Part shown: positions 60,904-62,007 of the stretch, piece by piece
Layout: the number at the start of each line of letters is the position of its first letter
Position numbering within the stretch: position 1 is the stretch's first letter
NCBI GenBank assembly: GCA_045656005.1
Contig: JAZOQG010000032.1
Coordinates: 1,438 to 65,437, forward strand
DNA from: Clostridia bacterium
GTDB taxonomy: Bacteria > Bacillota > Clostridia > UMGS1883 > UMGS1540
Length of the DNA: 64,000 nucleotides
Direction: 5' to 3'
The notes under the pieces: model-generated
The model's input: the letters and a program-made list of their open reading frames with translations, nothing else
Database searches by the model: none
Told to the model about the DNA's origin: nothing
Position numbers and translations under genes: made by a program

Positions 60904-60927
60904 ACCACATAATCGTGATTATGTGGT
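60904..60927. repeat. IR-L: 24-bp near-palindromic recombination-site-like repeat (accacataatc-GT-gattatgtggt)
   Basis: Identical to the repeat at 61134-61157 except that the central dinucleotide is inverted (gt versus ac), so the two copies are in inverted orientation. Confidence 0.6.
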
Positions 60928-61079
60928 ATTCATAGGACAGACCATTCTTCATATAGAGATATTTTAACTTCTGTTATCAAGGATTTATAGACCGATGATT
61001 ATTTTCAACTTCATCGGTCTTGAAAATATGCTATTTTTTATTTATTATGTAGAAATTAAGAATAAGTTTATACAAATCA

Positions 61080-61108
61080 TTGACATAATTCGATTTTTTT
61101 AGTATAAT
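61080..61108 (+). promoter_or_regulatory. Perfect consensus sigma70 promoter TTGACA-17-TATAAT inside the IR-flanked segment, currently facing away from the SPFH operon
   Basis: TTGACA at 61080-61085, a 17-nt spacer, and TATAAT at 61103-61108. Confidence 0.6.
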
Positions 61109-61133
61109 ATATTTGTAATTTTGCGATTGCACG

Positions 61134-61157
61134 ACCACATAATCACGATTATGTGGT
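61134..61157. repeat. IR-R: 24-bp repeat (accacataatc-AC-gattatgtggt) followed by a T-run; abuts the stop of the tyrosine recombinase gene
   Basis: Inverted copy of IR-L. It is followed by gtttttatttt and can act as a terminator hairpin in the current orientation. Confidence 0.6.
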
Positions 61158-61167
61158 GTTTTTATTT

Positions 61168-62007
61168 TCAGCAGATTAATAGTCCAAGTCTTTGCAACTG
61201 CTTTCTGTGAATTTCGCCTGTTTCCATTGTGTATATTCGTGTAGTGTTCACACTTGAGTGACCAAGAATGTCGGCAAGCCTTACAACATCTTTCTGGAGA
61301 GAGTAGTAGGTGCGTGCAAACAGATGGCGAAGATTATGTGGGAATACTTTATCTTTTGACACTCCGGCAATTTCACAAAGCTTTTTCATATCAGACCATA
61401 TATTGCTTCTATCAAGTGGTTTTCCGTTTTTGCTTACAAATACAGAGCCACTTTTTATATTGTTTTCTCTTATATAGTCTTTTAGCATTTTGCAAAGCTG
61501 CTTAGGTAAGATAACAATTCTCATTTTACCTTTACAGTTAATTGTTGCCTGTCCAGACTTGACAGCAGAAACCGTTATAGCTTTAAGTTCTGATACACGG
61601 ATACCTGTTGCACATATAGTTTGCATAAGGTAATAAAGTCTTTGGTTTTTCTTTTGCTTTGCAGCAACTAACAATCTTTCATATTCAGCTTTTGTCAGTT
61701 CCTTATCCTTACTTGAAAATATCTGCCTTTGGATTTTAAGAGCCTTCACCTTCAGGTCATACCACTCGTTATATGCAAAGAAACTATTTAGTGATGATAG
61801 TATAGAATTTACACTTGCCGGAGCATATTTTTCTACTATATCTTTCTTGTATTCAAGCACAACACTTTTACTCAATTCTGTTTCTTTGCACCATTCCATG
61901 AATACTGCTATGTCACGGACATACTTATCCAAGGTAGAGGGGGACTTTTCCTCATCAATTAAATGGCCTTTAAACTTTTTTATTAGTTCGTTTGTGATTT
62001 TTCTCAT
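61168..62007 (-). CDS. Tyrosine site-specific recombinase (phage integrase family; candidate invertase for the adjacent switch)
   Basis: C-terminal catalytic residues in HNLRHLFART and LGHSSVNTTRIYT (R-H-R-Y); an N-terminal SAM-like core-binding domain; 279 aa. Confidence 0.85.
   Translation of the reverse strand: MRKITNELIKKFKGHLIDEEKSPSTLDKYVRDIAVFMEWCKETELSKSVVLEYKKDIVEKYAPASVNSILSSLNSFFAYNEWYDLKVKALKIQRQIFSSKDKELTKAEYERLLVAAKQKKNQRLYYLMQTICATGIRVSELKAITVSAVKSGQATINCKGKMRIVILPKQLCKMLKDYIRENNIKSGSVFVSKNGKPLDRSNIWSDMKKLCEIAGVSKDKVFPHNLRHLFARTYYSLQKDVVRLADILGHSSVNTTRIYTMETGEIHRKQLQRLGLLIC

Follow-up and report, generated by a model that had tools for sequence, protein, structure and literature searches.

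A 64,000-nucleotide stretch of DNA from a Clostridia bacterium (assembly GCA_045656005.1, contig JAZOQG010000032.1, positions 1,438-65,437 of the forward strand; hereafter the window, with positions counted from its first letter) contains two inverted repeats that enclose a promoter and lie between a tyrosine recombinase gene and a five-gene operon, here called the cargo. We conclude that this element is very probably a phase-variation switch, or inverton, whose promoter would be flipped by the adjacent recombinase, and that the window holds it in the orientation predicted to be OFF for the cargo. The element has the features of its class: inverted repeats, an outward-facing promoter, an adjacent recombinase with intact catalytic residues and, in sister loci, both orientations of the segment. 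The preliminary description of the window had proposed an invertible promoter that is now OFF, and that proposal is supported by the two orientations found in sister loci, by contigs that break at the repeats, by covariation of the spacers within the repeats and by the intact catalytic hexad. A switch defined in sequence would be of use for uncultured gut Clostridia, where few such switches are characterised.

Orientation of the promoter segment

The left repeat (IR-L, 60904-60927, ACCACATAATCGTGATTATGTGGT) is proximal to the cargo, and the right repeat (IR-R, 61134-61157, ACCACATAATCACGATTATGTGGT) is proximal to the recombinase gene. Each is 24 bp long with perfect palindromic arms of 11 bp, and the sole difference between the two is a central GT versus AC; because this centre is the only asymmetry, the pair is inverted. 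The repeats enclose 206 bp of AT-rich DNA (60928-61133), and the coordinates given for them in the preliminary description proved exact. In a repeat search the pair grows to 28 nt, with arms that are 96% complementary and 206 nt apart. In scans of the 64-kb window that tolerated three mismatches or fewer, whether the four central bases were fixed or left open, only IR-L and IR-R were found, compared with 0.00-0.01 copies expected by chance.

Within the segment is a sigma-70-type consensus promoter (TTGACA-17-TATAAT, 61080-61108, plus strand), as had been described earlier; it matches at 12 of 12 positions and is the top match in the region. It points away from the cargo and toward the recombinase gene; 25 nt separate the end of the -10 element from IR-R, and beyond IR-R the promoter reads into GTTTTTATTTT. 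The window's segment is 91.7% identical to a segment that is known both ways round (in the sister loci L054 and L052), and its layout is kept in 14 distinct segment sequences: one repeat is followed after 61 nt by a hairpin and its T-rich tail, the -35 and -10 elements come next (about 59 nt further on in most cassette types), and the second repeat lies 25-36 nt beyond them. Where the hairpin was identified, its distance to the promoter is 49-59 nt. The position of the promoter is constant across the family, with TTGACA or TTGACT as the -35 element and TATAAT or TACAAT as the -10 element.

We compared 68 related loci from public assemblies. A scan for the repeat in a collection with one genome per species gave six metagenome-assembled genomes (MAGs) of Clostridia from human and buffalo gut, and a metagenome scan gave four more loci; the complete copies from both scans are all in the window's orientation, as are 20 loci reached through the recombinase homologues P0060 and P0065. 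A 35-aa open reading frame (ORF) inside the segment in L021 and L029 was considered as a sign of an orientation difference and rejected, being a difference between gene callers; all P0060 and P0065 loci are OFF.

The opposite orientation is found in the P0047 cassette. Its recombinase is 90% identical, it has the same SPFH-type cargo as the window, and its 24-mers do not differ from those of the window. The promoter of L054 (ERZ27227158) is directed at the cargo, and reverse-complementing the L054 segment gives exactly that of L061 (SRR7905343), L052, L053 and L055; the flanks of L054 and L061 show 0 mismatches over 1360 + 1237 nt. A search of relatives for the same repeat pair around a promoter facing the other way had been proposed beforehand as a test, and its outcome is positive. 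The P0070 cassette (85%-identical recombinase; cargo of an S8 peptidase and a 2045-aa protein; spacers TGTT/AACA) likewise occurs in both orientations, in eight contigs. Its promoter is directed toward the cargo in L033, L036, L042 and the partial contigs L038 and L039, and the exact reverse complement is present in L034, L035 and L037, with 0 mismatches between the flanks of L033 and L034 over 3849 + 2736 nt. In the P0035 cassette, whose recombinase is 92% identical, the promoter 29-mer of L062 is identical to the window's and faces a DUF5685 cargo.

Two explanations would account for these orientation differences in other ways, namely an assembly artefact, or a transposon resembling a miniature inverted-repeat transposable element (MITE), with 24-28-bp terminal inverted repeats, that inserted either way round. 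Inverted repeats can confuse assemblers, one contig (L042) folds back on itself through the repeat, and a 254-bp unit with terminal inverted repeats is superficially like a MITE. Both explanations are nevertheless highly improbable. The k141-labelled contigs, L034-L037 and L054, are assemblies made with k=141, and because the 24-bp repeat fits inside a single k-mer of that length, the junctions of the flipped contigs must exist in the reads and the repeat is no cause of a misjoin. Both orientations moreover recur in independent samples. With regard to a transposon, there are no target-site duplications, and the element always lies about 10 nt past the stop codon of a recombinase gene from one and the same family, regardless of cargo. 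After flipping, the spacer of each site has kept its orientation relative to its flank, which is the expectation for a crossover inside the core.

The ends of contigs are also informative. L002, L040, L041 and L063 end on the very base at which an assembly graph would branch into the two orientations, and L002, which has the window's repeat type, ends on the last base of IR-L. L066 was left out of this evidence; it ends 9 nt inside the second repeat, off the branch point.

Copies with the window's spacer type (CGTG/CACG) number one ON and 47 OFF plus the window; those with TGTT/AACA number three ON, plus the two partial contigs, and three OFF; and the TCCC/GGGA type is represented by one ON and 0 OFF. 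Several points in these and related data weigh against the interpretation as an active switch. First, 48 of the 49 CGTG/CACG copies, window included, share the OFF orientation, implying that the flip to ON is rare, selected against, or absent in some lineages. Second, an exact-protein look-up of the window's recombinase returned no record, and with it no flipped copy from the window's own strain. Third, the junctions specific to the inverted state are left flank-IR-L-CGTGCAATCGC and CCTATGAAT-IR-R-GTTTTTATTTT, and an ON-junction pattern gave 0 matches in the JGI metagenome and viral collections, a null result that is weak because the metagenome collection holds only four repeat loci. Fourth, the evidence for orientation is all at the level of assemblies, and the promoter and terminator calls are consensus matches. 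Finally, the OFF state might leak, through read-through from the recombinase gene into the operon.

The most direct alternative is that the family is invertible but the copy in this strain is locked or decayed, the palindromes acting only as terminators or attenuators, with IR-R ending a transcript and IR-L forming a hairpin before the operon. The skewed tally is in line with such a fixed state, as is the terminator-like score of both repeats, and the evidence from the source is an assembly rather than reads. We regard a locked copy as unlikely, however. The repeats, the promoter, the internal hairpin and the six catalytic residues are all intact in the window; L054, with the same repeats, is flipped; L002, with the same repeat type, breaks exactly at IR-L; and assemblies report the majority state only. 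Plain terminators and operator sites were also considered as the main explanation, along with the artefact, the transposon and a small RNA gene discussed below, and were rejected.

Under the favoured interpretation of a functional switch, we infer that the segment also flips in the window's strain. The strong OFF bias suggests that the cargo has a costly function and is switched on in a minority of cells. A practical consequence is that natural ON and OFF alleles are available in public assemblies, from which primers and PhaseFinder references can be designed directly.

Core sites and recombinase

Comparison of the related loci defines the sites as 10-bp arms, ACCACATAAT and ATTATGTGGT, around a 4-bp spacer; the arms are conserved in all 68 loci, with rare single changes. 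IR-L is thus ACCACATAAT-CGTG-ATTATGTGGT and IR-R is ACCACATAAT-CACG-ATTATGTGGT. Seven spacer types occur across the cassettes (CGTG, TGTT, CAAA, TTTC, TCCC, CGAC and CGGC), and within every related locus the spacer of the partner site is the perfect reverse complement while the arms stay constant. In the core sites of tyrosine recombinases, the arms are where the protein binds; the spacer has no sequence requirement of its own but has to agree with that of the partner site. The constancy of the arms and the covariation of the spacers fit the behaviour of such core sites.

The arrangement resembles that of dif, the target of the Xer recombinases. The core site contains CATAAT-N4-ATTATG, an inner palindrome identical to that of E. 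coli dif, and when the window's site (ACCA-CATAAT-CGTG-ATTATG-TGGT) is set beside E. coli dif (GGTGCG-CATAAT-GTAT-ATTATG-TTAAAT), it is seen to have a dif-type core. Canonical dif sites have two arms around a 6-bp central region (PMC3025954), and by analogy strand cleavage would be placed at the edges of T-NNNN-A. The symmetry of the arms would fit a single recombinase that binds both halves.

The recombinase gene (61168-62007, minus strand) encodes a 279-aa protein with a Pfam Phage_integrase match at 2e-30. Its 3′ end had been said to abut IR-R, and the stop codon is indeed 10 nt from the repeat. This distance of about 10 nt is the same in every related locus except L064, where an insert of about 107 bp lies between the recombinase stop codon and the recombinase-proximal repeat (2404-2519 in that locus) and carries a palindrome of its own, GGAAATTAGTACTTATTGATACTAATTTCC. 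Alignment to E. coli XerD (1a0p) shows all six catalytic residues to be present (R137, K161, H224, R227, H250 and Y259). The closest protein models are XerA, XerD and XerC; the equivalog cut-offs were not reached for any of them (142.6 versus 220 bits for XerA_Arch, 134.8 versus 329.6 for XerD and 114.6 versus 335 for XerC). Judged by these scores, the protein can be described as Xer-like, short of an XerC, XerD or XerA equivalog. It also misses the NCBIfam cut-offs for tyrosine-type DNA invertases of the FimB/E type (NF007370, 35.0 versus 221 bits; NF007371, 22.8 versus 222 bits). We infer that this protein is the catalyst of the inversion.

A reaction scheme can be proposed from these features. 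The Xer-like recombinase would bind the four half-sites (ACCACATAAT / ATTATGTGGT) of the two inverted dif-like core sites, strands would be exchanged within or around the central region (T-CGTG-A versus T-CACG-A), and the exchange would flip the 206-bp segment. Constant dif-like arms combined with a private spacer suggest how an Xer-type enzyme was re-used for gene regulation.

A second consequence of the site structure concerns specificity. The private 4-bp spacers probably keep paralogous cassettes from recombining with one another. Cassettes with TGTT/AACA and CGAC/GTCG spacers, which have different cargo, occur together in two samples (L033 and L065 in JGI 3300029705; L035 and L066 in ERZ27248446); no single contig in these samples links them. 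Their co-occurrence is consistent with several paralogous cassettes per genome, and this finding of two cassette types in two samples is the sole support for the proposed orthogonality through spacers. In engineered heterospecific lox and FRT sites, identical arms are combined with different spacers, and recombination requires that the spacers match. The seven spacer types seen here resemble an orthogonal set of this kind, and may constitute a natural collection of candidate orthogonal recombination sites; unlike the engineered variants, they belong to a family that arose in nature and in which every cassette has one recombinase gene.

The region upstream of the recombinase gene (62008-62130, minus strand) is conserved in sequence comparisons and contains a ribosome-binding site (RBS) and a likely extended -10 element, TGGTAAAAT. 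A 13-mer, CAAATCATTGACA, occurs twice, once in the -35 region of the invertible promoter (61073-61085, plus strand) and once about 66 nt upstream of the recombinase ATG (62063-62075, minus strand), where it is kept in most cassette types. The upstream copy is 26 nt from the likely -10 element and is therefore too far away for a normal -35 element. The shared 13-mer could be bound by a regulator or an accessory protein, or could have arisen by duplication of part of a promoter.

A separate observation concerns DNA further upstream. Three Logan contigs from three runs, L059, L060 and L061, have an identical first base, which lies 511 nt upstream of the start of the recombinase gene, and upstream of about that point L054 and L061 diverge strongly from L052, L053 and L055, with about 630 mismatches in 2349 nt. 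This pattern suggests either a recurrent module boundary or a strain-variable junction.

Predicted transcription and comparison with known switches

In the OFF state seen in the window, the promoter would fire toward the recombinase gene, and a transcript of about 55 nt, with a predicted start near 61115, would be stopped by IR-R. Termination at IR-R had been predicted earlier, with a transcript of about 45 nt; that prediction stands, and the length is revised upward. IR-R together with its T-run (to about 61169) is a terminator-like hairpin on the plus strand and is scored as such in a terminator scan; the predicted transcript forms a 10-bp hairpin followed by a U-run (-15.2 kcal/mol, z = -2.9). 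Both repeats score as terminator-like hairpins. The cargo operon would in this state be left without a strong promoter.

A strong promoter followed by a strong hairpin and U-run is also what would be expected of a small RNA gene, and the leader of the operon carries the same palindrome as IR-R. It could thus be argued that the element encodes an RNA of about 55 nt that acts on the 3′ end of the recombinase mRNA or on the operon leader, the repeats being RNA structure. We consider this very unlikely. Searched at a permissive threshold, the region 60700-61400 gave chance-level matches only, with no Rfam family near threshold, and the part of the transcript that precedes the repeat, downstream of the -10 element, varies between cassettes. 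The small RNA hypothesis also fails, as do the artefact and the transposon, because it leaves unexplained the exact inversions with identical flanks (in assemblies with k=141), the covariation of spacers within each locus and the fixed link to the recombinase. An RNA produced as a by-product of the OFF state could be compatible with a switch.

In the ON state, the promoter would lie 25 nt from IR-L and transcribe through it into the operon. The preliminary description had placed the inverted -10 element near IR-L, which is correct, at about 26 bp, for which 25 nt was measured. It had also placed the RBS and start codon of the operon about 30 bp beyond IR-L, in agreement with the 31 nt found here (RBS AAGGAGGAA, 60880-60888; ATG, 60872). 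The ON-state transcript would meet the repeat hairpin followed by an interrupted U-tract, AUUUGCUUUGUU, and this interruption should allow transcription to pass.

A second hairpin lies inside the segment, with the arms AGACCGATGA and TCATCGGTCT separated by 12 nt and followed by a T-rich tail (60989-61020, plus strand; fold z = -3.5; also recovered in the repeat search). Its distance from the end of the segment is constant at 61 nt, and its arms have compensatory changes between cassettes (GACCGATG/CATCGGTC versus GACCAATG/CATTGGTC, and GACCGGTT/AACCGGTC in the L031 alignment). Because it is upstream of the promoter and on the same strand, it would in the ON state meet transcripts leaving the recombinase gene, and we therefore read it as an insulator. 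It is probably an insulating terminator, in which the hairpin and T-tract would block read-through from the recombinase gene.

Among known systems, the fimS switch of E. coli, with FimB and FimE, is similar in its organization: a promoter-only segment of 200-300 bp, inverted repeats, one or more adjacent recombinase genes, a downstream operon and a binary ON/OFF output. It differs from the window in having two recombinases of opposite bias rather than one, and 9-bp repeats rather than 24-bp near-palindromic dif-like sites; the window's recombinase is also Xer-like and, as noted, far below the cut-offs for FimB/E-type invertases. The 3′ end of the fimE transcript depends on the orientation of fimS. 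In the window, the recombinase gene is co-directional with the cargo, and its 3′ untranslated region (UTR) hence changes with the orientation of the segment; the 3′ end of the recombinase transcript would accordingly depend on the state of the switch.

Of the published elements, inverton group 139 is probably the closest. It is linked to invertase group 35 and has 33 members, from cultured gut Clostridia of a defined community, nearly all with a tyrosine recombinase alongside (PMC11892184, Microbiome 2025). In the example from Clostridium sp. D5, the published coordinates place about 206 bp between repeats of 26 bp, and flipping during passaging was shown by read mapping (PMC11892184). The Clostridia hosts (the related MAGs are also Clostridia), the adjacent tyrosine recombinase and the geometry are as in the window; this comparison is by geometry, not by repeat motif, and the passages of that paper available to us describe neither dif-like sites nor spacer covariation nor the cargoes of the window's family (PMC11892184). 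A full-text literature search for the repeat motif, and for invertons together with SPFH or DUF6591, gave unrelated primer matches or nothing.

The Xer/dif systems, including XerH/difH, XerS/difSL and archaeal XerA, share with the window the protein matches, the dif layout and the inner palindrome. They differ in that the window has two inverted sites 230 bp apart, beside a gene in a mobile defence island, versus one site at the terminus, and in that the proposed outcome is inversion rather than resolution. Because the protein scores are below cut-off and the arrangement of sites is wrong, the window's system is not chromosomal Xer/dif. An Xer-like recombinase with a regulatory role is known from Mycoplasma agalactiae, where Xer1 causes high-frequency inversions that switch the expression of the Vpma surface proteins (PMC2268961, PMC5634654). 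In the vpma locus, however, one promoter is shuffled among several genes by way of multiple sites, whereas the window has a single two-site flip; hosts and cargo are unrelated, and the likeness is one of architecture alone.

RecV of C. difficile is a master recombinase with several sites (cwpV, flgB and cmr), only Cdi7 having an adjoining recombinase gene (PMC5903667). The RecV switches are found in Firmicutes hosts as well, and consist of short intergenic or 5′-UTR segments that a tyrosine recombinase inverts between short repeats, making envelope functions phase-variable (PMC5903667). Cassettes of the window's type differ, to the extent that architecture alone can be compared, in that each has its own adjacent recombinase and promoter. 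The cwpV and flg switches act after transcription initiation, and no promoter is moved. In summary of these comparisons, the type of switch is already known; what goes beyond routine is the clean grammar of the dif-like sites with their private spacers, the portability of the cassette from one cargo to another and the uncharacterised nature of a cargo within a defence island.

Cargo operons and genomic setting

The first cargo gene (59571-60872, minus strand) encodes, according to a domain scan, a protein that combines an SPFH (Band_7_1) domain, a Gly-rich linker and six zinc ribbons and has no transmembrane (TM) segment. The other four genes of the operon (56931-59558, minus strand; intergenic gaps of 11-29 nt) encode, in turn, a protein with 5 TM segments (58884-59558), one with 2 TM segments and a zinc ribbon at its C-terminus (58231-58863), a DUF6591 protein with a single TM segment (57356-58201) and one with 4 TM segments (56931-57344). 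The five-gene operon described earlier is thus present, and two small minus-strand genes past its end, after a 39-nt gap, may belong to the same transcription unit. These genes, 56616-56891 and 56332-56616, overlap by 1 base and encode a 91-aa protein without a family match and a 94-aa DUF6809 protein.

PADLOC and NCBIfam searches with the five cargo proteins gave no significant family, and the operon is therefore not assignable to a known defence system. The architecture of the first protein resembles that of B. subtilis SamI/YdjI. This SPFH protein is cytosolic, has a linker of low complexity, ends in a zinc finger and is recruited by membrane partners, one of them bearing a zinc ribbon; the likeness is by domain layout alone.

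The recombinase and switch form a module that precedes at least eight unrelated cargo operons. In addition to the SPFH operon, the cargoes consist of a zinc-ribbon protein with an SH3 protein; an S8 peptidase with a giant protein; a TetR regulator with an SLH/VWA protein; an NPCBM protein with an S8 peptidase; a DUF5685 protein; an M48 peptidase; and an acyltransferase with an AMP-binding enzyme. They are varied, and mostly envelope-related, secreted or of undefined role. The homology of L006 to the window ends no more than 1 nt from the outer edge of IR-L; an operon for zinc-ribbon and SH3 proteins follows. New cargo appears to have been attached precisely at this edge of the site next to it, a hint that cargo may be captured or exchanged by the recombinase itself.

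The window's cassette is flanked by genes of mobile elements and of defence. First in order of position are a large serine recombinase (47320-48951; Resolvase, Recombinase, Zn_ribbon_recom and DUF4368 domains) and a MobL relaxase (49984-51111). At the far end of the cargo operon, a 268-aa HamA-domain protein and a 1039-aa DEAD/ResIII helicase (52252-56171, plus strand) form a pair that by its domains looks like Hachiman. On the other side, a ThsB-type Thoeris TIR gene (62224-63081, plus strand; PADLOC PDLC00430, 1.7e-70) is divergent from the recombinase gene; ThsA is not evident between ThsB and the window end at 64000. The serine recombinase and the relaxase suggest that an integrative mobilisable element with defence genes spans all of this DNA, starting at about 47 kb and reaching 64 kb or beyond.

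The sister cassettes adjoin AbiH, restriction-modification genes, a PemK toxin and serine integrases. From these neighbours, and from the serine recombinase, MobL and defence genes of the window, it follows that the cassettes reside in mobile defence islands. A generalised site pattern gave 0 matches in a viral contig collection, and there is thus no sign there of a phage-borne cassette.

Taken together, the data allow a broader proposal, which we put forward tentatively and with considerable doubt: that the family consists of portable, mutually orthogonal cassettes derived from Xer/dif, with recombinases 75-94% identical, the same arms and private spacers, and with phase-variable anti-phage or envelope-defence functions as possible cargo. 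For example, the SamI/YdjI-like SPFH module between the Hachiman-like pair and ThsB could be a phase-variable anti-phage or envelope-defence system. If the proposal is true, several cassettes could flip independently in one genome without cross-recombining.

Two minor observations concern the vicinity of ThsB. The next ORF after it (63129-63587, minus strand) encodes a 3-TM protein with no family match. In L062, a 285-aa divergent gene occupies the position that corresponds to ThsB in the window.

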